Source: a virus
Lineage: Duplodnaviria > Heunggongvirae > Uroviricota > Caudoviricetes
Length of the DNA stretch: 39,644 nucleotides
Direction: 5' to 3' (one strand)
IMG/VR virus record: IMGVR_UViG_2718218133_000003
In this document: piece by piece, positions 1,641 through 19,583 of the stretch
Layout of the letters: each line of letters starts with the position of its first letter
How positions within the stretch are numbered: the first letter of the stretch is position 1
Program-made: the position numbers and the translations under genes
Notes under the pieces: generated by a model
The model's input: the letters and a program-made list of their open reading frames with translations, nothing else
What the model was told of the DNA's origin: nothing
Database searches by the model: none

Positions 1641-4148
1641 TTAAGAATCAGCCTGACTCGGGATCAGTTTTTGCCAGATAACTGAAACGTATTTTGCCTG
1701 GTAACGGGCGTCATCAAGTGCATTATGGCGCTCACCTTCGAATGGAATAGCCGTTCTGGCATCGAAGTCTATGGCTTTCCCCAGCTCAACGATTGTGCGT
1801 ACATCGCGATCGTTGTAGTAACGCCACGGGCAGGGGATCCCCTGCCGTTCGTATGAACGGCGCAAAATCGTGTTGTCGAAGTTGGCTCCATTTCCCCAGA
1901 CCTGAACAAAAAATTCACCGGAGTTTTCGTCGATAAATTCCCGCAATTGTAACAGTGCATCATCTAACGGGATTTCATCGGTCATAATGGCAGATTGCGC
2001 TTCGCGTGATTGCTTAAGCCACCATTTAATGGTGTCCCGATCAATGACTCCGCCAGCAGTTTCCAGATCGATAGTCTTACTAAATTCCGGTCCCATATCT
2101 CCGGTTTGCGGATCGAAAAATATTGCACCTATTGAGATGATCGGGGCATCAGGATTTTTTCCCATGGTTTCAAGGTCGATCATTAGATGGTCACACGTCC
2201 TGCTGGTGGATGTGATTTCTTGATGACCGTTCACCTTAATTGAGTGATCTGCCGTCTCGCCAGTTTCATTATCGCTATCGTGATGCTGATTGCCGACAGT
2301 GTTCTCCTTGTGTGGATGTTCAGCGCCTTCCATTTCCTCCGGATCATCTTCCTGAACTTCAACCTGATACTCTTCATCGAATGTTTCCTGGTATGTTGCG
2401 TCGCCCATTACCGCGCCACAATCAGGGCAGTTGCCGCCGCCGGTCTGACCGCAGGCGGTGCAGACTTTTTCCACTTCCTGTTGCGCCACTGATTCAGGCT
2501 GTTTCGTTTCTGGCTCGTTTTGTAACGCATTTGGGCTGTTTTGTTCCGCTTTTTGGTAGTTCCGTTCCGATTCATGCTGGTTCTGGTTCACAGAATCGCG
2601 GGTCTGGATCCCCTTAACCCATTTCGGATCATTCGGGTCACTAATCCCTTCAACAAATTCACCACGTGATGCAGCAAGCAACTTATCGGCGTCAGGCTGG
2701 ATGATATTGGCTGCCTGCATAATTTTGTTTACTTCGTCAGCGGTAACTTTTATCGGCTCTGGTTGTTCTGAATCTTCAGCGGTATCTACATTTTGCGGTA
2801 AGCCCGTGTATGTGCCATTTTTTCGGGCAAAATATTCTTCTTTTGTGATTTCAGTGGCGCCAGCAGCCAGTGCCTTATCCAGACCAGAAAGTTTGTTTGC
2901 GCGACCGTATTTTTCTCCGTCCTTATCTGCGAAGAGGAAATAGAACGGCCCCTCACGCTCTACAGATGGTTCAGCTTCCGGCGCGGTTTCATTTTTTGGG
3001 ATATCAGATACCTCAGTTTCCACTGCATCAGTTTGTGTTTCTGATGACTGGAGAACATCAACAGTGCCCAGGTCTGTTTCTTCATTCTCAAACACGCCCT
3101 TTGTCGTCAGGTATTCGCAGATATATTTGTTCAGTGCTACGGGATCTTTGTGAATGTCGATCGGACGCTCACGGACAAGGCCAAAAATAGTTTGGCGGTC
3201 GTAGCGAAGGGCATCAGGCTGTTTGCGCATTGATGCCGAGATACGCTTCCAGTCTTCGCGGTCGTTGTCGATAACTTCATTTTTTGCCCAGCGATGGATG
3301 CTGCCGTCAATGTTTCCGGCATCCACATCACCAGGCCAGAGAGCGTAGGCCAGTTCGTCATCCAGTGTTTTCCATGTCTGCTTGTATTCGCGATGAATGG
3401 CAGCAATGACCGGGCTGATTTTTCCTGTTGAATTTTCAGTGTACTGTTGATTGGCTCTGGCGCGGGCGAGATCAACAACAGACGTGTATTTTCCGGTTTC
3501 CTTGCGTTCACCTTCGCGACGTTTTTTCCAGATGCGCATCTCTGCCTGAATTTCGGGCCATTTAGCACCAGGAATACATTTATGCTTAACCCACCCAATG
3601 GCGTGCAACTTAAGCTCCGGATACATGGCGTTAACTTCTGGCATTTTCATCAACGCTTCAACGATATGTCCGTCGAATGTTGCCATGTCTTCCTGCAACA
3701 ATTCCTGTGCGCTAATAACCATATCAACGGTGATGTTTTCACATGTGTCGAACTTAACCATGACAGCGTTCTGTACTTCAGGGGCCAGCTTGTCAAAAGT
3801 GACGTTCATCGGATCGGATTCAGTCTCAACCGGGACAAAAGAAGCAGACTCCTCATCCCAGCGGTTTTCCTGCATATATTCAGCATCCCATGAATCGAGG
3901 GCAGGGCGGGGTATGCCAGGTTTATCCTCGCAGACAATAAATTTATAAGCGCAGTCCTGAGCAGCCGGATAATGTTCCAGGAATTGCCAGTGAAATTTTG
4001 CTCGAGCACGGCGTTCGTCGCCAGCTTCAATGGCTGTGGCTACAGCCACAGCGCCTTCTTCCCTTGTTGCCAGTTCGTCAGGAATAGCGGCGCAAATAAA
4101 GACTTTACTCATTTGTTTTAACCTCATGACAGATTTAAGGATGAACAA
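1641..4148 (-). CDS. Large phage exonuclease with C-terminal DnaQ-like DEDDh 3'-5' exonuclease domain (full-length form of the ydfE-type gene)
   Basis: 835-aa ORF; C-terminus shows Exo I (LMIDLETMG), Exo II (VWGNGANFDNTIL) and Exo III (HNALDDARYQAKY) motifs; sits in the exo position between xis and the kil-like genes. Confidence 0.8.
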   Translation of the reverse strand: MFILKSVMRLKQMSKVFICAAIPDELATREEGAVAVATAIEAGDERRARAKFHWQFLEHYPAAQDCAYKFIVCEDKPGIPRPALDSWDAEYMQENRWDEESASFVPVETESDPMNVTFDKLAPEVQNAVMVKFDTCENITVDMVISAQELLQEDMATFDGHIVEALMKMPEVNAMYPELKLHAIGWVKHKCIPGAKWPEIQAEMRIWKKRREGERKETGKYTSVVDLARARANQQYTENSTGKISPVIAAIHREYKQTWKTLDDELAYALWPGDVDAGNIDGSIHRWAKNEVIDNDREDWKRISASMRKQPDALRYDRQTIFGLVRERPIDIHKDPVALNKYICEYLTTKGVFENEETDLGTVDVLQSSETQTDAVETEVSDIPKNETAPEAEPSVEREGPFYFLFADKDGEKYGRANKLSGLDKALAAGATEITKEEYFARKNGTYTGLPQNVDTAEDSEQPEPIKVTADEVNKIMQAANIIQPDADKLLAASRGEFVEGISDPNDPKWVKGIQTRDSVNQNQHESERNYQKAEQNSPNALQNEPETKQPESVAQQEVEKVCTACGQTGGGNCPDCGAVMGDATYQETFDEEYQVEVQEDDPEEMEGAEHPHKENTVGNQHHDSDNETGETADHSIKVNGHQEITSTSRTCDHLMIDLETMGKNPDAPIISIGAIFFDPQTGDMGPEFSKTIDLETAGGVIDRDTIKWWLKQSREAQSAIMTDEIPLDDALLQLREFIDENSGEFFVQVWGNGANFDNTILRRSYERQGIPCPWRYYNDRDVRTIVELGKAIDFDARTAIPFEGERHNALDDARYQAKYVSVIWQKLIPSQADS

Positions 4149-4750: not shown

Positions 4751-4808
4751 AAAAAGGGCGGCAGAGCAGTCACGGAGTAAAACTGATACCGCCAAACGTC
4801 ACCAGAAA
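4751..4808 (-). ncRNA. dicF: DicF small RNA (ftsZ-targeting) with intrinsic terminator
   Basis: Reverse complement reads UUUCUGGUGACGUUUGGCGGUAUCAGUUUUACUCCGUGACUGCUCUGCCGCCC followed by a U-tract; recognised from memory as DicF. Confidence 0.8.
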
Positions 4809-5643: not shown

Positions 5644-5980
5644 ATCACTCACCTGAGTTTCTTTCCAGCCAGCGACGGGCACCATTTTCGGTTTTAAACG
5701 TTTTGCTTTTGGTATACGTCATCGCGGTGAACGTACCGTCCTGGTTGGGGAACACGCCACATACCGGAGATTCGCTGTTGCCAAGATCGATAGTATCCAT
5801 GCTGACCTCATTTCCCCTTAACGCCGGGGTAGCGGAACAAAAACCTGCTGCATAGTTATTAAAGTTGAACCCTGCCGTCATGTTCTTACGCCTCGGGCTG
5901 GCTACTTAACCCCTGACCACTGCCTGGTAACTCGAAGTATTGCCCTGCATTCTGTGGGGCGGGGTGGGTGGCAGGCATAT

Positions 5981-6596: not shown

Positions 6597-6851
6597 ATGA
6601 ACCAGAAAACACTTGAAGATGTAATCAAAACTGTTCGCGTTGCTGTTGTGGCCGACGTTTGTGGTGTCAGCCAAAGAGCAATCTATAAATGGATGGATAA
6701 CGGAAAATTGCCTCGCACAGAATATACCGGCGAAACAAATTACGCTGAAAAAATCGCTCTTGCATCAAACGGATTATTTTCTGCCGATGCAATTTTAACT
6801 ATTGGCAGGAATAAAACTACTACGAAAAAGCTGATGGGAGTTGATTCATGA
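6597..6851 (+). CDS. Cro-like HTH DNA-binding protein (YdaS-like)
   Basis: ATG at 6597 with GAGGGTGA upstream; HTH motif VADVCGVSQRAIYKWMDNGKLP; divergent from repressor. Confidence 0.7.
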   Translation: MNQKTLEDVIKTVRVAVVADVCGVSQRAIYKWMDNGKLPRTEYTGETNYAEKIALASNGLFSADAILTIGRNKTTTKKLMGVDS

Positions 6852-7273
6852 AAATCAAGCATGAACACATCCGCATGGCGATGAATGCCTGGGCGCATCC
6901 GGACGGCGAAAAAGTACCGGCTGCGAAAATTACCAAAGCGTATTTCGAGCTGGGAATGACGTTCCCGGAACTGAATGACGACAGCCATCCGGAAGCCCTG
7001 GCTCGCAATACCCAGAAAATTTTCCGCTGGGTAGAGAAAGACACCCCTGATGCAGTTGAAAAAATTCAGGCGTTGTTACCAGCGATCGAAAAGGCAATGC
7101 CACCTTTGCTGGTGGCCAGAATGCGCAGCCACAGTTCAGCTTATTTTCGGGAGCTGGTGGAGACGCGGGAGCGACTGGTGAGAGACGCTGATGATTTTGT
7201 CGCAGTGGCAATCGCCGGTTTCAATCAGATGAACCGTGGTGGCCCGGCAGGAAATGCTGTGGCAGTACATTGA
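6848..7273 (+). CDS. YdaT-like (CII-position) protein
   Basis: 141-aa ORF beginning MKIKHEHI, recalled as the characteristic YdaT family N-terminus; ATGA overlap with upstream gene. Confidence 0.6.
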   Translation: MKIKHEHIRMAMNAWAHPDGEKVPAAKITKAYFELGMTFPELNDDSHPEALARNTQKIFRWVEKDTPDAVEKIQALLPAIEKAMPPLLVARMRSHSSAYFRELVETRERLVRDADDFVAVAIAGFNQMNRGGPAGNAVAVH

Positions 7274-9139: not shown

Positions 9140-10531
9140 TTATGCTTCATGTTGCTTTTTGAGATCGCTTCTAGCATAGCTCCACTCAATAATGTTGTCG
9201 GGTCGTTGCTGATCGAAAAGGATACGGGATTCAATACCATTACCTAAAAAGCTGGTATTCCCATCTACGTAAGAAGCTATCCCTTGTGAACCAACACGAA
9301 GAATATTTTCTAATGGCTGCTTTGTTCTTGCTGCATCGCTAAGGAGATATAAACCCGGGTACGTTTTGTTAGCACGGTGAAAAAAAAGTTCATTGTCAAA
9401 ACACATGACGATGATTATTTGTCCCGACATGAGATCGGAGAGCATTTCAGTTGGCAGATGCAAACTCATAAATGGTCGAGACAAAGGGTCAAAGAATGAA
9501 TCATTTATATTCACAACAGGGCTTTTTATACCGAGACTATCCATCCATCCATTGAAGGCAACAAAGCCCATTTCAGAATCACGGTACATACCTAAGAACA
9601 AACATTCATCAATAGTATCAATTGCCCAATTTTTTCCTCCGCGAATAATCTCCCACATTTTAACTAAGCGGTGGGTATAAAATTCAGACGGATGATCTAT
9701 CTCATTGATTTTAACTTTAGACTGATGAAAGTTGTCAAAGCCCTCGCCAGTATTAATCGCCTCCAGAACATTCATGCCACGAATGATTTGCCTTTTTATG
9801 CGATTAAATTGCTTAACATCATTATCAGGCATATTGTTAATGAAGTTTTCTTCAAAGTGCGGACATTCTGAGATAACAGAAAATTCAGCAGCTTCATAAA
9901 GCTCATTATTCTTTTCACCTGTTTTAACTTCCACGAGCTGGAAGCCATCCAGTAGATTAAAGGTGACTAAATCTCCCACATGAACAAATGTGCTCATGTC
10001 AGAGACAATCGCTACGGAGTGTTTGTCCTGGTTGATAAGATCGGCTGCGACCATAGAATCAATTATGTTATCTTCTGATAGATTGTCATTGCTTGCATTA
10101 ATAGGTAAACGCCGCAAACTAGAGTGTTCTTCATCAAGAATGCTCCAAATTATTGAGTCAATACAACGGCGAAGAATAAGAATTTCAAATTTTTTTAAAC
10201 TTATTTCATCAATACACTTTTCTTTATTTTCTTTATCCTTGTTTCGATGGTGCTCTTTTTTTTCAGTTTCCAATCTTTTTATATCTCTCAGCCGAATAAT
10301 AATCTCAAAAGATATGATTTTTTGTGAGTCTTTCCAATTTTTGAGACAGGTTTCATACTCTGCAAGAAAATCCTCATCATTGGAAGGTAGTTCTTGAATT
10401 GGATTCCCTCCCCTTATCATTTTGGCAAGTGCATGCATTAAAGATACATAATGAGGTGATAAAATTGTCCAAAACTTCCTAAACGGTTTGTACTTTTCAA
10501 GAAAAGTTGACTCATCAGTATAATTCATCAT
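9140..10531 (-). CDS. Hypothetical 463-aa protein, AT-rich, possible PD-(D/E)xK nuclease motif; candidate defence component
   Basis: ATG at 10531 with GAGG about 8 nt upstream; motif HVGDLVTF...QLVEVKTGE fits D...E.K; codon and base composition clearly more AT-rich than flanking phage genes. Confidence 0.6.
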   Translation of the reverse strand: MMNYTDESTFLEKYKPFRKFWTILSPHYVSLMHALAKMIRGGNPIQELPSNDEDFLAEYETCLKNWKDSQKIISFEIIIRLRDIKRLETEKKEHHRNKDKENKEKCIDEISLKKFEILILRRCIDSIIWSILDEEHSSLRRLPINASNDNLSEDNIIDSMVAADLINQDKHSVAIVSDMSTFVHVGDLVTFNLLDGFQLVEVKTGEKNNELYEAAEFSVISECPHFEENFINNMPDNDVKQFNRIKRQIIRGMNVLEAINTGEGFDNFHQSKVKINEIDHPSEFYTHRLVKMWEIIRGGKNWAIDTIDECLFLGMYRDSEMGFVAFNGWMDSLGIKSPVVNINDSFFDPLSRPFMSLHLPTEMLSDLMSGQIIIVMCFDNELFFHRANKTYPGLYLLSDAARTKQPLENILRVGSQGIASYVDGNTSFLGNGIESRILFDQQRPDNIIEWSYARSDLKKQHEA

Positions 10532-10620
10532 AACCAAACCTCATTCCTCTTATCTATTTTCCTCAAGGTATAAAATACCAGCCTTTTTTACATAATTATA
10601 GTTATAATATGAAGTCTCAT

Positions 10621-11490
10621 TCAGATATCTTCATACTGTACGTAAGAAATATTTGAGCCTCTGATACCATAATCTTCTAAACTGCCTGATTTTTTCTCAC
10701 CTCTATATAAAGCAACTATCCATCGAGCATTTTCTTGGATGCTTTTATTTATTTCAGTAAAGTATTCACCGTCAACTTCGGCGAGCGAGTGGCCTAAAAC
10801 GATGACCTCGTCCACATTTTTAAGCGATGAGAAAAAAACGTTTTCTTCTTTAATTATGTCTTCGCTGGGCTTGAATGTATTACCGAAGTATTCGTTTATT
10901 CTGTCGTATGCCTCTGCTATTCTTGTATCTTGATCCGGTCCTATATATGGATTTAGTGACTTTTCCACCCTAAAACTATGACCAAGTATGAGATCGTCAT
11001 CGTAACTACAATTGCCGTGAATATGTATGATTTGCTCGTCTGGAACGGCATAGATCTGCTGCAAGGTATTTGTATAATTAAATGAAAAATAGATGCTTTC
11101 TCTTGGTATGGGCGGGATGTATTGCTTAGGATTGTAAGCATCGGCTATGTTAATCCCTTTAACCCAATCAGCGAATTGCTCCTTCAAACGAGCTGACAGC
11201 ATTTGTGTGATTTTATTTACTTCATATTGGTAATCGTGATGATAAGCATCGCTCCAATCATCGGTATTGTATGAAGCCAAAAATATCTCACTGTTTTGAA
11301 GGATAAGCTCATAATCAATTTCACCTAAAGCATTTTCTAACTCATTCCACTCGTCCCCAGCAGGAATGTATTCTTCTATCGCGTCATATAGATCTTGGTC
11401 ATTTTTTTCTACATACGACTTAAAGTGCTTGTATCCTGTTGGTAAGCCATGACGCATGTCAAATCCATTTCCTATTATGTAAAGCCTCAT
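10621..11490 (-). CDS. AbiH-like abortive-infection family protein (candidate defence component)
   Basis: Start MRLYIIGNGFDMRHGLPTGYKHF matches the IIGNGFD..HGL N-terminal signature recalled for AbiH (Pfam PF14253); AAGGGA Shine-Dalgarno; AT-rich. Confidence 0.6.
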   Translation of the reverse strand: MRLYIIGNGFDMRHGLPTGYKHFKSYVEKNDQDLYDAIEEYIPAGDEWNELENALGEIDYELILQNSEIFLASYNTDDWSDAYHHDYQYEVNKITQMLSARLKEQFADWVKGINIADAYNPKQYIPPIPRESIYFSFNYTNTLQQIYAVPDEQIIHIHGNCSYDDDLILGHSFRVEKSLNPYIGPDQDTRIAEAYDRINEYFGNTFKPSEDIIKEENVFFSSLKNVDEVIVLGHSLAEVDGEYFTEINKSIQENARWIVALYRGEKKSGSLEDYGIRGSNISYVQYEDI

Positions 11491-12105
11491 TGTTTTTCCC
11501 TTAGTCGAATTGTATAAAAATACTAACATGGCCTGCTCCACGTTGACTACTATCCCCTCCTTTGAGTAATGCCTTCATCAGATGTAACAACATTTGCGAG
11601 CTTCCACAGTTCGCTCAAAGCGGACTAGAAGGTTAGCTTGCGTCGGACTTGGCGTATTTAAAGAAGTGCTGGTGGAGACTGGTTGTTGTGTTCCATTTCT
11701 ACAGAACAAAATCACAGAAACTATACCCAATAGTTATATTGAATCAATGATGAGACAGCCTCATATTTATCAGGACTGGTGTACGTCCAATACAGGAGGT
11801 TGTCGTGCTGGTTCTCAAATGTGCGCTAGCTATTGCGGCTGTAATGGCAATTTATTGTCTTGCTGTTGTTCTTACGGATCGCCTTTCTGATTGATTTTAT
11901 ATTGGCGAGGTGACGTGAGTTAAGTAGAATTGCTGCGGGTGCTTGAGGCTATCTGCCTCAGGCATGAACACCAAAGGCAGATAGAGAAAAGCCCCAGTTA
12001 ACATTACGCGTCCTGCAAGACGCTTAACATTAATCTGAGGCCAATTTCATGCTAGACACATGTAGGTTAGCCTCTTACGTGCCGAAAGGCAAGGAGAAGC
12101 AGGCT

Positions 12106-12261
12106 ATGAAGCAGCAAAAGGCGATGTTAATCGCCCTGATCGTCATCTGTTTAACCGTCATAGTGACGGCACTGGTAACGAGGAAAGACCTCTGCGAGGT
12201 ACGAATCCGAACCGGCCAGACGGAGGTCGCTGTCTTCACAGCTTACGAACCTGAGGAGTAA
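12106..12261 (+). CDS. hokD: Hok/Gef family type I toxin (HokD/RelF-like)
   Basis: 51-aa product MKQQKAMLIALIVICLTVIVTALVTRKDLCEVRIRTGQTEVAVFTAYEPEE; in-frame upstream extension to 12049 gives a 70-aa mok-like frame. Confidence 0.9.
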   Translation: MKQQKAMLIALIVICLTVIVTALVTRKDLCEVRIRTGQTEVAVFTAYEPEE

Positions 12262-14061: not shown

Positions 14062-14436
14062 ATGCTCATAGATTTGGTTTTACCTTACCCGCCGACGGTG
14101 AACACTTACTGGCGACGCCGTGGCAGCACATATTTTATCTCGGAGGAGGGAAAGCGTTATCGCCGGGCTGTGGCGCTTATTGTTCGCCAGCAGCGGCTGA
14201 AATTAAGCCTGTCCGGAAGGCTGGCGATAAAGGTGATTGCAGAGCCACCGGATAAGCGTCGTCGCGACCTGGACAATATCCTGAAAGCACCGCTGGATGC
14301 GCTGACGCATGCGGGAGTGTTAATGGACGATGAGCAGTTTGATGAAATCAATATCGTTCGTGGTCAGCCAGTATCTGGTGGACGTCTGGGGGTGAAGATT
14401 TACCCCATAATGCATGAAGAGCAGGTCAAAAAATGA
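14062..14436 (+). CDS. rusA: Holliday junction resolvase RusA
   Basis: 124-aa ORF; LPYPPTVNTYWRRRG N-terminus and DLDNILKAPLDAL motif typical of RusA; nin-region position upstream of Q. Confidence 0.85.
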   Translation: MLIDLVLPYPPTVNTYWRRRGSTYFISEEGKRYRRAVALIVRQQRLKLSLSGRLAIKVIAEPPDKRRRDLDNILKAPLDALTHAGVLMDDEQFDEINIVRGQPVSGGRLGVKIYPIMHEEQVKK

Positions 14437-15254
14437 AACTGGAAGATTTACCGAAATACTACTCCCCAAAATCCCCTTGCCTGACCGATGCATCGGCCTC
14501 AACGTCAAAAGATGCGCTGAGTATCACTGATGTGATGGCCGCGCAGGGCATGACACAGAATCGGGCTGAGATGGGGTTTTCTGCGTTCCTGGGGAAAATG
14601 GGCATCAGTATGAATGACAGGGCGCGGGCAACAGAATTACTGGCAGATTATGCACTCAGTCGGTGCGATCGTGTGGCGGCGTTGAGAAAACTTCCGGCAG
14701 AAATAAAACCGGTAGTGATGCGCATTATGGCTTCGTACGCTTTTGAGGATTATGCCCGCAGCGCAGCGAGTAAAAAGCAGTGCCCTTGTTGCTATGGGGA
14801 AAAATTTATTGAAAGCGTAGTTTTTACAAACAAGGTCCAGTATCCGGATGGTAAGCCGCCGGTATGGGCAAAGTGTACGAAAGGTGTGTATCCGTCTTAC
14901 TGGGAAGAATGGAAAAAAGTCAGGGAAGTGGTAAAAGTTGCCTGTCCGGAGTGTGGCGGAAAGGGTGAGGTTTCCACCGCCTGTAAGGATTGCCGTGGGC
15001 GTGGTGTCGCCATTCACCGTGAAGAGTCGGTAAAACGTGGTATGCCTGTTATCAGAGACTGCCAGCGTTGTGGTGGTCGTGGCTATGAAAGACTACCATC
15101 AACGGAGGCATTTAATGCTATATGCGAGGTGACAAACCAGATAACACGCGCGTCATGGGAAAAAACAGTTAAGAAATTCTATGATGCGCTGGTGACCCGG
15201 TTTGATATTGAAGAAGCATGGGCTGAGCGGCAGTTAAAAAAGGTAACTAGGTAA
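14433..15254 (+). CDS. Q: Late gene antiterminator Q (phage 82/21-like, zinc-binding)
   Basis: 273-aa ORF with CPCCYG...CPECGGKG...CKDCRGRG...CQRCGGRG zinc-finger-like motifs; immediately upstream of a pR'-like promoter. Confidence 0.8.
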   Translation: MKLEDLPKYYSPKSPCLTDASASTSKDALSITDVMAAQGMTQNRAEMGFSAFLGKMGISMNDRARATELLADYALSRCDRVAALRKLPAEIKPVVMRIMASYAFEDYARSAASKKQCPCCYGEKFIESVVFTNKVQYPDGKPPVWAKCTKGVYPSYWEEWKKVREVVKVACPECGGKGEVSTACKDCRGRGVAIHREESVKRGMPVIRDCQRCGGRGYERLPSTEAFNAICEVTNQITRASWEKTVKKFYDALVTRFDIEEAWAERQLKKVTR

Positions 15255-15259
15255 CAAGG

Positions 15260-15298
15260 TTGATTTTTCCGGAATCTGTGGTAAATTCGTCATAATGA
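15260..15298 (+). promoter_or_regulatory. Late promoter pR' (-35 TTGATT, 16-bp spacer, -10 TAAATT) with predicted start near 15298
   Basis: TTGATT at 15260..15265, TAAATT at 15282..15287, then ...ATGGGC, closely resembling lambda pR' (TTGACT ... TAAATT ... ATGGG). Confidence 0.65.
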
Positions 15299-15334
15299 TG
15301 GGCTTTTTATGCCTGACGTTAGAAGAGTTTCTAC

Positions 15335-15360
15335 AACCCGCCGCCGAGCGGGTTTTTTAT
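15335..15360 (+). terminator. tR'-like intrinsic terminator (Q antitermination target)
   Basis: Hairpin AACCCGC-cgccga-GCGGGTT followed by TTTTTT, about 40-60 nt downstream of the pR' start. Confidence 0.65.
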
Positions 15361-15397: not shown

Positions 15398-15473
15398 GGC
15401 CCTTTAGCTCAGTGGTGAGAGCGAGCGACTCATAATCGCCAGGTCGCTGGTTCAAATCCAGTACAGCGCGCCA
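15398..15473 (+). tRNA. tRNA-like sequence (ileX/ileZ-like, anticodon CAU) with non-complementary acceptor stem; probable pseudo-tRNA
   Basis: D-arm GCTC-AGTGGTGA-GAGC, anticodon loop CTCATAA, T-arm GCTGG-TTCAAAT-CCAG and 3' CCA are present, but 5' GGCCCTT cannot pair with 3' ACAGCGC. Confidence 0.5.
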
Positions 15474-15937: not shown

Positions 15938-16411
15938 ATACATATCTGGATTATCACCTGTTACGGTAAAAAGTTATTGCTTACTGTTTTTGTGAATGGC
16001 ATTGCAGCAGCCGGATAATGTCAGTGCTGGCTGACGGTGTGCTGGTGGCGGGTGTGGTGGTTATTGCTTTCCCGTTGCTGAAAAAGAAAACGCCAGACTG
16101 TTAGCCGGGTATCAGTTAGCGGGAGAAATTTTTAAATACTTCACAATTCAGGCGGTTGACTGTTGTCTGGTTTGCGGGGAGTTTGTTAAAAGAAACTGGC
16201 ATGGTGAATCCCCCTGTGCGGAGGGGCAATCAGCGAGTAGGTATATGGGATAATCGCGGATTCAGGTGCTGGTACTGAATTCACCGGGAGGCACCCGGCA
16301 CCATGCACTTCAATAGATTCTCTCCACATTATGGATATTCTTTCAGAATATCCCACGCAGACTTTGTGTAAATGTTAACAAATGTGCGTTTTATTTGATC
16401 TGATTCGCTGT

Positions 16412-16441
16412 TTGAGCGTCCAAAACAACGGTATATATAAT
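16412..16441 (+). promoter_or_regulatory. Candidate sigma70 promoter for the first TolA-domain lipoprotein moron
   Basis: TTGAGC ... TATAAT-like element about 30 bp upstream of the gene start at 16471. Confidence 0.4.
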
Positions 16442-16470
16442 CCTTTACTATATGACATATGTGAGGAAAA

Positions 16471-16899
16471 ATGGGTTTTCGTAGCGCATCAATTCTTACG
16501 TTGATTATTAGTGGGATTATTATCGGGTGCACTGATGCTGTATCGACAAATTATCATGACCGTACATCATATTACTCCGATAAAGCAATAGAGACACAGT
16601 ATGTGAGTTCATCTGAACGTACTTCTGATGTTAGTGAGGATATCCGTCTGTATGCCCATCAAATCAAGAGCGCCATCGAAAAACAGTTCGGGGATGCGAG
16701 TAAGTATTCAGGAAAAGAGTGTACACTGAGAATGCATATGGCCCCGAATGGCCTTCTACTGGAGGTTAAAAGAGAAAGTGGAGACCTCGATTTATGTCGT
16801 GAAGCGATGAATGCGATAAAGAATGCTGATATACCTGCCCCCCCTTCGCCGGAAGTATATAAAGTATTTCAAAATGGGGTGCTGGATTTTAAACCCTGA
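16471..16899 (+). CDS. Lipoprotein with TolA C-terminal domain III-like domain
   Basis: Signal peptide plus lipobox (IIIGC); C-terminal ~85 aa (YAHQIKSAIEKQFGDASKYSGKECTLRMHMAPNGLLLEVK...PEVYKVFQNGVLDFKP) aligns closely with E. coli TolA domain III as recalled. Confidence 0.7.
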   Translation: MGFRSASILTLIISGIIIGCTDAVSTNYHDRTSYYSDKAIETQYVSSSERTSDVSEDIRLYAHQIKSAIEKQFGDASKYSGKECTLRMHMAPNGLLLEVKRESGDLDLCREAMNAIKNADIPAPPSPEVYKVFQNGVLDFKP

Positions 16900-17049
16900 T
16901 ATTTATTGTTTTGTAATAAACGGTTTCGGCTTAGGTTTGTTCTGACACAACTACGGCACTGAGCTAAATTTAGCGGATAGTCAACTCTGAGCCAGTGGCG
17001 GACGTAACAACTACTATTGCTGAGATTTTAATGGATTGAGGAGCAAGAA

Positions 17050-17445
17050 GTGGGATTAAAGAAAATCGTTATGTTGACTTTTTGGGTCGGTTTTGTTGCG
17101 GGATGCACACCTTTACACCCTTCAGATTGCCACAAAACTACTGCTACAGGTAGTTGCAGTTCAGGACGCTGGGATGATCAGGATGAATGGGGGGCGCAAG
17201 CGCGGGGAATCAGAGCTGCAATTAATGCCAAACTTGATGAGCCGCATAACTGGAAAGGGAAAAAATGCAGGTTGCATATGGAATTCTCTCAGGATGGCAC
17301 GGCGTTAAAAATATCTACCAGTAACGGTGATAAAGCCTATTGCGAAGCGATAAAGTCCGCAGCTCATAAAGCCAAATTTCCGGCCTTCAACAATCCGGAA
17401 GTCTACAGAGATTTTCAGAAATCTGGCTTTGACATGCGAGGTTAG
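17050..17445 (+). CDS. Second lipoprotein with divergent TolA domain III-like C-terminus (paralogue of 16471..16899)
   Basis: GTG start with GAGGAG Shine-Dalgarno; lipobox (VAGC); C-terminus GKKCRLHMEFSQDGTALKIS...PEVYRDFQKSGFD follows the same pattern. Confidence 0.6.
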   Translation: MGLKKIVMLTFWVGFVAGCTPLHPSDCHKTTATGSCSSGRWDDQDEWGAQARGIRAAINAKLDEPHNWKGKKCRLHMEFSQDGTALKISTSNGDKAYCEAIKSAAHKAKFPAFNNPEVYRDFQKSGFDMRG

Positions 17446-17570
17446 CTCTTCAATTACTATATCTCATTCATAGCAAACTGACAGATTTGATGATGTTCTA
17501 TATACGAAACCTGTGATGTCAAGTCTGAGCTAATACAAATAAACATAATATCAGAGAAATACATTTTATT

Positions 17571-17595
17571 AGCTCGCTACGGCGAGCTTTTTATA
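17571..17595 (+). terminator. Intrinsic terminator after the lipoprotein morons
   Basis: Hairpin AGCTCGC-tac-GGCGAGCT followed by TTTTTAT. Confidence 0.55.
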
Positions 17596-17696
17596 TTGCA
17601 TCGTCTCCAGCATATATATCAATTAAGGCTCCGATTGATGTGTCTGGAAGCCTACACATAATAACTATGCCATCCGTTCCGTGCGGAGGTGAGGCT

Positions 17697-17912
17697 ATGA
17701 AATCCATGGACAAAATTTCAACAGGCATTGCCTACGGCACCTCCGCAGGCAGTGCTGGCTACTGGTTTTTACAGCTGCTCGATAAAGTCACGCCCTCACA
17801 GTGGGCAGCAATAGGTGTGCTGGGTAGCCTGGTATTTGGCCTGCTGACGTACCTGACAAACCTTTATTTCAAGATTAAAGAAGACAAGCGTAAGGCTGCA
17901 CGGGGAGAGTAA
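17697..17912 (+). CDS. S: Class II holin (pinholin), phage 21 S-like
   Basis: 71-aa product [24 protein letters not shown]... with dual-start motif (MKSM...MDK); GGAGGTGAGG Shine-Dalgarno. Confidence 0.85.
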
Positions 17913-18286: not shown

Positions 18287-18820
18287 ATGAGCGCAAAAAT
18301 CAAATACGCCCTGTCAGCTGCTGTTCTGGCGCTGATTGCTGCAGGCGCGTCTGCTCCTCAGATACTTGACCAGTTTCTGGACGAAAAAGAGGGTAACCAC
18401 ACAACGGCATACCGCGATGGTTCCGGCATCTGGACCATCTGTCGGGGGGCCACGATGGTGGATGGAAAACCCGTTTTTCCCGGTATGAAACTGTCGAAGG
18501 AAAAATGCGACCAGGTCAACGCCATTGAGCGTGATAAGGCGCTGGCATGGGTGGAGAAAAACATCAAAGTGCCATTGAGCGAACCCCAGAAAGCGGGGAT
18601 CGCGTCATTCTGTCCGTACAACATTGGTCCCAGTAAGTGTTTCCCGTCGACGTTTTATAAACGAATTAATGCAGGTGATCGCAGGGGAGCGTGTGAGGCG
18701 ATTCGCTGGTGGATTAAGGACGGTGGCAGAGACTGCCGTATTCGTTCAAACAACTGCTACGGTCAGGTATCCCGTCGTGACCAGGAGAGCGCGCTGGCGT
18801 GCTGGGGTATCGACAGATAA
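18287..18820 (+). CDS. R: SAR endolysin (lysozyme with N-terminal signal-anchor-release domain), phage 21 R-like
   Basis: 177-aa ORF; N-terminal hydrophobic SAR segment YALSAAVLALIAAGA; lysozyme core motifs EGNHTTAYRDGSGIWTICRGAT. Confidence 0.85.
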   Translation: MSAKIKYALSAAVLALIAAGASAPQILDQFLDEKEGNHTTAYRDGSGIWTICRGATMVDGKPVFPGMKLSKEKCDQVNAIERDKALAWVEKNIKVPLSEPQKAGIASFCPYNIGPSKCFPSTFYKRINAGDRRGACEAIRWWIKDGGRDCRIRSNNCYGQVSRRDQESALACWGIDR

Positions 18821-19118: not shown

Positions 19119-19583
19119 ATGAACCGCGTACTGTGCGTGGTCATCATTGCCCTGCTGGCGGCCTGTGGTGCGCTTAGTCTGGGGCTGAATCATTACCGTG
19201 ATAACGCCATTACCTACAAAGCCCAGCGCGACAAAAATGTCAGAGAACTGAAGCTGGCGAACGCGGCAATTACTGACATGCAGATGCGTCAGCGTGATGT
19301 TGCTGCGCTCGATGCAAAATACACGAAGGAGTTAGCTGATGCGAAAGCTGAAAATGATGCTCTGCGTGATGATGTTGCCGCTGGTCGTCGTCGGTTGCAC
19401 ATCAAAGCAGTCTGTCAGTCAGTGCGTGAAGCCACCACCGCCTCCGGCGTGGATAATGCAGCCTCCCCCCGACTGGCAGACACCGCTGAACGGGATTATT
19501 TCACCCTCAGAGCGCGACTGATAATAATGCAAAAACAACTTGAAGGGGCACAGCTATACATTCGAGAGCAATGCCTCAGATAA
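19119..19583 (+). CDS. Rz: Rz i-spanin
   Basis: 154-aa ORF with N-terminal TM segment and coiled-coil-like body; position after endolysin. Confidence 0.85.
19339..19521 (+). CDS. Rz1: Rz1 o-spanin lipoprotein embedded in Rz (+1 frame)
   Basis: 60-aa ORF with lipobox (VVVGC) and proline-rich mature region, entirely within Rz. Confidence 0.8.

Follow-up and report, generated by a model that had tools for sequence, protein, structure and literature searches.

Two predicted outer-membrane lipoproteins with a TolA domain III fold between the Q and holin genes of a lambdoid Escherichia coli prophage

The Q-holin locus and its two predicted lipoproteins

We analyzed a 39,644-nucleotide stretch of viral DNA (IMG/VR record IMGVR_UViG_2718218133_000003; hereafter the window), a lambdoid Escherichia coli prophage of the Qin-site type that runs from integrase through tail-fibre genes, and concentrated on two small open reading frames (ORFs), ORF1 and ORF2, which occupy the interval between the Q antiterminator gene and the lysis cassette (Table 1). 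Each encodes a predicted lipoprotein that carries the fold of TolA domain III (TolAIII) at its C terminus and would be sorted to the outer membrane. TolAIII is the common entry handle for group A colicins and for filamentous phages of the Ff, If1, and CTXphi types, and it is also the point at which the Tol-Pal force acts on TolB. A sequence-only reading of the window had noted signal peptides with lipoboxes, TolAIII-like C-terminal regions, and a position between Q and the lysis genes, and each of these observations held up in the analyses described here.

Both N termini are organized as lipoprotein signals, in which a basic n-region precedes a hydrophobic core and a lipobox (IIG-C20 in ORF1, VAG-C19 in ORF2), and read MGFRSASILTLIISGIIIG-C-T and MGLKKIVMLTFWVGFVAG-C-T, respectively. 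ORF1 consists of a signal peptide (residues 1-19), Cys20 with Thr at +2, a disordered linker (residues ~21-51), and the TolAIII domain (52-142); ORF2 is composed of a signal peptide (1-18), Cys19, likewise with Thr at +2, a Cys-bracketed linker (20-45), and the domain (46-131). The lipobox Cys is invariant among 22 aligned homologues drawn from both families. This is the sequence pattern of bacterial outer-membrane lipoproteins, a lipobox Cys with no Asp at +2, and because Thr rather than Asp occupies that position, outer-membrane sorting is predicted for both proteins.

The Pfam TolA family (PF06519) matches ORF1 at 82.6 bits (E = 2e-23) and ORF2 at 54.6 bits (E = 1e-14) against a cut-off of 25, and apart from TolA itself, only the related TonB_2 model of Pfam scored above cut-off. 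Solved E. coli TolAIII chains were matched at E = 5e-28 (ORF1) and 5e-9 (ORF2). In AlphaFold2 models, the signal and linker region is disordered and the domain has a predicted local distance difference test (pLDDT) score above 90 for both proteins, with the order helix-strand-strand-helix-helix-strand as in TolAIII plus one short extra helix after the first helix. Structural comparison with TolAIII, which the earlier reading had put forward as a check, came out in favor of the fold: the top Foldseek matches are 2x9a_B for ORF1 (root-mean-square deviation 0.6 Å, TMt 0.96) and 3qdp for ORF2 (1.1 Å, TMt 0.92), with TolAIII structures ranked first and TonB C-terminal domains far lower. The disulfide pair of TolA, Cys363/Cys388, corresponds to Cys84/Cys109 in ORF1 and Cys73/Cys98 in ORF2 and is invariant in both family alignments, and the C termini of both proteins align with TolA residues 417-421. 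We regard the TolAIII fold and the predicted lipoprotein nature of both proteins as solid.

Neither protein is TolA proper. The TolA equivalog model NF007065 gives 107.8 bits for ORF1 and 53.7 bits for ORF2 against a cut-off of 213, covers only its last ~95 and ~80 positions, respectively, and fails as a full-length match; TIGR02794 scores ORF1 at 75.6 bits, above its cut-off of 59.45, through model positions 265-362 only, and ORF2 at 47.2 bits, under the cut-off. E. coli TolAIII (1TOL, 2X9A, 3QDP/3QDR, 1S62; PF06519) resembles the two domains in fold, disulfide pair, and terminal beta3 strand, but TolA has an N-terminal transmembrane anchor in the inner membrane, a helical domain II, and tol-pal operon context, all absent from ORF1 and ORF2, which have instead a lipoprotein signal and a short disordered tether. 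Their domain is thus predicted to hang from the outer membrane, where TolQR could not energize it.

The linker of the ORF2 family, C-x-PLHPS-x-C-HKTTATGS-C-SSGRWDDQDEWG, hardly varies between E. coli and Serratia despite its predicted disorder, and this conservation suggests a second binding function. A likeness of this linker to the TolB box of colicins (SSGRW...W, compared with DGSGW...W) was set aside as too weak.

The promoter-like element and downstream terminator that the sequence-only reading had assigned to the pair were recovered as consensus matches. TTGAGC-18-TATAAT, upstream of ORF1, is the best sigma-70-like site between positions 15200 and 18000; its -35 hexamer is retained in two related prophages (L017 and L018), where the -10 element is, however, TGTAAT, the form found with the 91%-identity ORF1 variant. 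The hairpin that follows ORF2 has seven pairs and a T-run. Because no terminator-like site lies between them, ORF1 and ORF2 probably form one operon. GC content at the locus is 0.36-0.47 (0.36-0.44 in most segments), compared with ~0.50-0.55 in the flanks. With promoter-like and terminator-like consensus signals, atypical GC content, and presence/absence polymorphism among related phages, the locus has the anatomy of a moron. At the same time, everything as far as the holin gene, the TolAIII pair included, sits inside the Q-antiterminated transcript, and since the locus lies downstream of the late promoter pR', it should also be transcribed at a high level once Q is made.

The window matches a prophage of E. 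coli FUJ80154 (L003) at 99.5-99.96% identity, apart from an 8.4-kb deletion and the absence of an IS1 element. The missing segment comprises head and tail genes; it starts within a prohead protease/capsid fusion gene and extends to the minor tail genes, which leaves the prophage defective and unable to form virions, while its accessory loci are intact.

Table 1. Features of the Q-holin interval and related coordinates (window positions unless a locus handle is given)
Feature	Position	Strand	Remarks
Q antiterminator gene	14433-15254		
Lambda-like late promoter pR', TTGATT-16-TAAATT	15260-15287		Directly after Q; read by eye
Strong hairpin terminator after pR'	15335-15354		
tRNA gene, anticodon CAT	15399-15473		
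STnc100-family structured RNA element	16170-16360	+	Rfam RF02076, 114 bits (gathering score 47)
Sigma-70 promoter-like site, TTGAGC-18-TATAAT	16412-16441	+	30 nt 5' of ORF1 start; 10/12 match
ORF1, 142 aa	16471-16899	+	ATG start; ribosome-binding site GAGGA at 16463-16467
TolA domain III of ORF1 (residues 52-142)	16624-16896	+	pLDDT >90; Foldseek 2x9a_B
ORF2 gene cassette (ribosome-binding site and ORF)	17013-17448	+	Stretch common to plasmid and chromosomal Enterobacterales copies; blastn
ORF2, 131 aa	17050-17445	+	GTG start; ribosome-binding site GAGGAG at 17038-17043
ORF2 linker (residues 20-45)	17107-17184		Extra Cys pair and two Trp
Intrinsic-terminator-like hairpin, AGCTCGC-TACG-GCGAGCT then TTTTTAT	17571-17595	+	~100 nt before holin gene
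Holin gene	17697-17912		
Lysozyme gene	18287-18820		
Rz gene	19119-19583		
Deletion junction	~26507		Missing part is L003 30209-38574 (FUJ80154 prophage); from comparison of the two prophages
ORF2 homologues on IncK2/Z-type plasmids	L001 3444-3875; L105 4995-5426; L106 4958-5389; L107 4964-5395		

Relationships, selection, and distribution of the two modules

The sequence-only reading had called the two genes paralogous, which stands in the loose sense that both encode TolAIII lipoproteins; as a recent pair they do not qualify. Over 88 residues, ORF1 shares 59% identity with E. coli TolAIII; ORF2 shares 31% with it, and the two proteins share 28% with each other. In a neighbor-joining tree, the ORF1 family falls among TolA-proximal lipoproteins and the ORF2 family in a deep, separate, older clade. 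Recent tandem duplication is ruled out by the low identity, the different clades, the occurrence of ORF1 variants unaccompanied by ORF2, and the restriction of ORF2 homology to its own cassette. These data indicate that the locus was assembled from two separately mobile modules.

The ORF1 family is confined to prophages of E. coli and Shigella. In lambdoid prophages with different Q types, the Q-holin interval can harbor an ORF1 variant (91% or 66% identity) with no ORF2 beside it; more generally, the stretch from Q to the holin gene S in other lambdoid prophages contains either ORF1 by itself or cargo of another kind. The 66%-identity variant (L012-L016, 3636-5539) lies 3' of genes for a TfpB-like protein and an AraC-family regulator, within the same interval, and in L014 and L016 it lies 5' of a gene with a DUF1737 domain, whose product in L014 has 648 residues and also contains SASA and DUF6645 domains.

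ORF2 has a much wider range. By blastn, the stretch that it shares with plasmid and chromosomal loci (L001, L002, and L004-L011) opens at 17013-17020 and closes at 17444-17448, so that only the ribosome-binding site and the ORF are common to them. On IncK2/Z-type plasmids with I-type mating-pair systems, the homologue always lies 68 bp after a nikB-type relaxase gene on the same strand, and on pO157 (L002 5995-6426) it follows psiB, psiA, and hok in a leading-region remnant. The homologues in L001 and L002 are 88% identical to ORF2 in amino-acid sequence, with ~87-88% nucleotide identity in L001, L002, and L105-L107. Solitary chromosomal genes of the ORF2 family occur in Enterobacter, where several strains share one site, and elsewhere in the chromosomes of Citrobacter and Klebsiella. 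In Serratia marcescens (L008-L011; gene at 8001-8408 in L008), the gene is found between nrdDG and the phn operon, next to a gene pair of the GmrSD type and with a HEPN domain, in a neighborhood that resembles a defense island.

Of 5426 complete E. coli genomes, 772 carry the entire 1.35-kb locus at 99% identity or more. ORF1 is present in 888 of the 5426 (16%), almost always on the chromosome, and ORF2 in 1269 (23%), with 525 plasmid places. Among 50,697 deposited phage genomes, one (mEp460_ev081) has either gene. IMG/VR yielded 152 matching prophage-type contigs, and the best 80 of the 152 were essentially identical copies that added no diversity.

An exhaustive HMMER search with ORF2 returned 130 cluster representatives, many of them 118-153 residues long. 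Among 50 short representatives, 39 have a lipobox, none has Asp at +2, and most end in a hydrophobic-D-F-K/R-x motif, the equivalent of TolA beta3. Both proteins belong to a wider family of TolAIII lipoproteins of ~120-150 residues, with no inner-membrane retention signal among the 50 examined. In L023 (324-4822), a divergent lipoprotein of the ORF2 clade is encoded directly 3' of genes for an HlyD adaptor, an ATP-binding cassette (ABC) exporter with a C39 peptidase, and a 60-residue ORF, an arrangement with the look of microcin-type export; a similar C39-peptidase ABC/HlyD exporter (L105 7343-10429) neighbors a plasmid ORF2 homologue.

Both genes are under purifying selection, with ratios of nonsynonymous to synonymous substitution (dN/dS, Nei-Gojobori) of 0.26-0.39 for ORF1 and 0.08-0.12 for ORF2. 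In ORF1-family variants with as little as 65% identity, protein length is conserved, as are the lipobox Cys and the disulfide pair.

A possible decoy role and competing explanations

The ligands of TolAIII use two edges of its sheet. The g3p N1 domain of Ff and If1, colicin N, and the N terminus of TolB each add a strand to beta3 (PMC4339652; PMC7391070), and colicin A adds a strand to beta2 on the opposite side, at a site made up of L375-P380, K368, K379, and K396 (PMC3365938). ORF1 has the same beta3 edge as TolA, LDFKP, and ORF2 has a beta3-like FDMRG. At the colicin A site, TolA residues L375, L376, D377, I378, K379, and P380 are L, L, E, V, K, and R in ORF1 and A, L, K, I, S, and T in ORF2, and K368, K379, and K396 are H, K, and K in ORF1 and E, S, and H in ORF2; judged by these residues, ORF1 keeps most of the site. 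One tyrosine of TolA has been implicated in the binding of TolB (Tyr-352 in the published numbering, 353 counted from the C terminus). Its counterpart is Gly in ORF1 and Asp in ORF2, which hints weakly that something other than TolB binding is being preserved.

Based on these features, the best-supported reading, which we hold tentatively, is that ORF1 and ORF2 are receptor-mimic decoys against TolA-dependent colicins and filamentous phages. We infer each of its steps, from export through outer-membrane location, expression in the lysogen, and ligand binding to protection. In the lysogen, the pair's own promoter would drive its transcription as far as the hairpin before the holin gene, and after Q synthesis the pair would also be read through from pR' at a high level. 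Each protein would hang a TolAIII domain on a flexible tether of ~25-30 residues and, because it has neither a TolQR-coupled anchor nor domain II, could bind TolAIII ligands without transducing force. On the inner surface of the outer membrane, at the point of entry into the periplasm, the decoys would intercept g3p N1, the translocation domains of incoming group A colicins, or TolB loaded with colicin ahead of energized TolA, and the lysogen or plasmid host would become tolerant. As a close copy of TolAIII, ORF1 would offer both binding edges, beta3 for g3p, colicin N, and TolB and beta2 for colicin A; ORF2, from the older clade without the colicin A-site lysines, would cover a different range of ligands. 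The affinity of TolAIII is ~1 µM for colicin N, g3p, and colicin A and ~40 µM for TolB (PMC4339652; PMC3365938), so a decoy could trap invaders with little titration of TolB.

The support for a decoy role is circumstantial. It comprises the retained beta3 edge, the largely retained colicin A site in ORF1, and the predicted outer-membrane anchor; relatives located in the transfer region of I-pilus plasmids, beside apparent defense genes, and beside putative bacteriocin exporters; and the moron-like anatomy, purifying selection, and distribution on mobile elements. In addition, the 8.4-kb loss of head and tail genes has left the locus of this prophage untouched. We find the location of relatives in the I-pilus transfer region particularly suggestive, given that If1, the phage specific for that pilus, uses TolAIII as its coreceptor (PDB 2x9a).

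Several points weigh against a decoy role. Literature searches that targeted TolA homologues encoded by prophages or plasmids turned up no functional study of them, PADLOC has no model or match for either ORF, and PHROGs places both proteins in phrog_5772, listed as "unknown function." Colicin killing is single-hit, and micromolar affinity would demand an abundant decoy. ORF2 is without all three lysines of the colicin A site. Its relatives in Enterobacter, Citrobacter, and Klebsiella, solitary genes in ordinary neighborhoods under strong constraint, fit a physiological as well as a defensive role. Overproduction of periplasmic TolAIII makes the outer membrane leaky, as described in PMC6195910, and by analogy a cost or a different purpose is plausible for the prophage proteins. 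The position of the pair in the late operon, beside the lysis genes, fits a role in the lytic cycle too, and identity above 99% across 772 genomes may reflect hitch-hiking with a successful prophage.

As decoys, the two proteins would resemble known exclusion lipoproteins of mobile elements in function but differ in mechanism. T5 Llp, Cor of phi80 and N15, and TraT of F are small outer-membrane lipoproteins that guard the carrier cell, Llp and Cor by binding and blocking the outer-membrane receptor FhuA; ORF1 and ORF2, in contrast, copy a periplasmic co-receptor domain and would be decoys rather than receptor blockers. In Ff g3p immunity, the interaction of g3p-N1 with TolAIII makes cells tolerant to colicins and to superinfecting filamentous phage. 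The proposed decoys would exploit the same interaction from the opposite side, since g3p occupies the TolA of the host and ORF1 and ORF2 would occupy the invader. The nearest experimental analogue is engineered periplasmic TolAIII, made by fusion to a signal sequence (Wan & Baneyx 1998, as cited in PMC6195910), which is likewise a free domain uncoupled from TolQR. It differs in being artificial, soluble, and strongly overproduced, whereas ORF1 and ORF2 are predicted to be lipid-anchored, have diverged from TolA, and are presumably made at a lower level, under a promoter of their own. Levengood-Freyermuth and colleagues reportedly found in 1993 that engineered periplasmic TolAIII gives colicin tolerance as well.

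A broader proposal, possible but doubtful, is that decoys of receptor domains form a class of their own on the mobile elements of Enterobacterales and intercept, in the periplasm, the TolA-binding modules of group A colicins and filamentous phages. Prophages would use them to shield their lysogens; I-pilus plasmids, with one in the transfer region, would offset the vulnerability to pilus-specific filamentous phages that comes with their pilus; and the combination of ORF1, close to TolA, with the divergent ORF2 would broaden the range of invaders caught.

A serious and credible rival, although we consider it unlikely, is that the two proteins sabotage Tol-Pal, either in the lytic cycle or to make the envelope leak. 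Read-through from pR' before lysis would supply free TolAIII domains that titrate the TolB N terminus off energized TolA, and the resulting tol-like outer membrane, leaky and vesiculating, would aid the holin/endolysin/spanin cassette or periplasmic release. The genes do lie within the Q-dependent late transcript, immediately 5' of those for holin, lysozyme, and Rz, and their beta3 edge is conserved; blocking strand addition between TolA and TolB gives a full tol phenotype (PMC4339652), and overexpression of periplasmic TolAIII is used in biotechnology to release periplasmic proteins, according to PMC6195910. However, close homologues reside on chromosomes and plasmids that have no lysis cassette, the promoter-like site and terminator-like hairpin would isolate the pair from the lysis genes under repression, and the locus has stayed intact in a prophage that no longer makes virions. 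The weak binding of TolB to TolAIII and the replacement of the TolB-implicated tyrosine in both proteins also argue against titration of TolB.

It is likewise unlikely that the proteins serve neither defense nor lysis and are accessory envelope partners, in which an outer-membrane TolAIII-like module would bind TolB or another partner and tune Pal mobilization, vesicle formation, or constriction at the division site; the prophage and plasmid copies would then be cargo that alters the envelope properties of the host. The solitary chromosomal genes of the ORF2 family, whose site is fixed in Enterobacter and differs in Citrobacter, Klebsiella, and Serratia, with dN/dS near 0.1, are consistent with such a role, as are the near-invariant Cys-bracketed linker, which suggests a second conserved interaction, and the breadth of the family of short TolAIII lipoproteins. 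On the other hand, the neighborhood changes from genus to genus and homology ends at the ribosome-binding site and the stop codon, as in a mobile accessory cassette rather than a core gene; the ORF1 family is restricted to prophages; and the 2020 Tol-Pal review (PMC7391070) mentions neither such TolA homologues nor such a partner.

That the two ORFs are decaying, functionless fragments of a captured tolA, as the RefSeq annotation and the match of ORF1 to only the end of the TolA equivalog model imply, is very improbable and is contradicted by the sequence data on selection and conservation, together with the intact reading frame, its good ribosome-binding site and lipoprotein signal, and the confident folding of both models. 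RefSeq/PGAP labels ORF1 as a pseudogene ("tolA, incomplete, missing N-terminus") in every record listed (e.g., L003 20340-20600), a label that purifying selection marks as an artifact. For ORF2, RefSeq uses a later ATG as the start, which removes the basic n-region of the signal peptide; this start is probably wrong, because the plasmid homologues have ATG exactly where ORF2 has GTG.

The domain itself is already recognized by Pfam and PGAP. Beyond that, the present data point to a natural, mobile copy of TolAIII with a predicted outer-membrane anchor, widespread in E. coli genomes and present on pO157 and IncK/Z plasmids, for which a co-receptor-mimic function would be new relative to the known exclusion lipoproteins. 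If the decoy role is correct, it would represent a defense principle absent from current defense catalogues, periplasmic co-receptor mimicry, would bear on applications of colicins and filamentous phages and on plasmid-targeting phage therapy, and would provide a natural tool to dissect TolA-ligand specificity. If, instead, the proteins perturb Tol-Pal, they would give mobile elements a lever on outer-membrane stability and vesiculation. In either case, the systematic tolA-pseudogene label in RefSeq hides an intact ORF1 gene under selection.

Neighboring loci and the STnc100 element

This prophage carries several other loci that affect the host or may act in defense. An AbiH-family abortive-infection gene (10621-11541, minus strand) is intact in the window and is interrupted by IS1 in FUJ80154; it adjoins an unannotated ORF of 465 residues (9140-10537, minus strand), and a hok/sok module (sok, 11937-12111) and DicF (4756-4807) lie near it.

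Directly 5' of the ORF1 promoter-like site lies the STnc100 element. The block 16138-16900, comprising STnc100, the promoter region, and ORF1, appears to be inherited together, being 88.6% identical in other prophages (L017-L021) and ending at the ORF1 stop codon by blastn. In the L017 prophage, the Q-holin interval contains four STnc100 copies (3589-3802, 5704-5877, 6599-6803, and 6854-7061), which bracket cargo consisting of an IS200-type transposase gene with STnc490, a pmrD-like gene, and ORF1. A role for STnc100 as a pR'-tR' leader, with the late promoter just 5' of ORF1, was ruled out, because the pR'-like promoter and its terminator lie right after Q (15260-15360) and because L017 has four copies. 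The element may instead mark module boundaries or act in RNA processing or termination.

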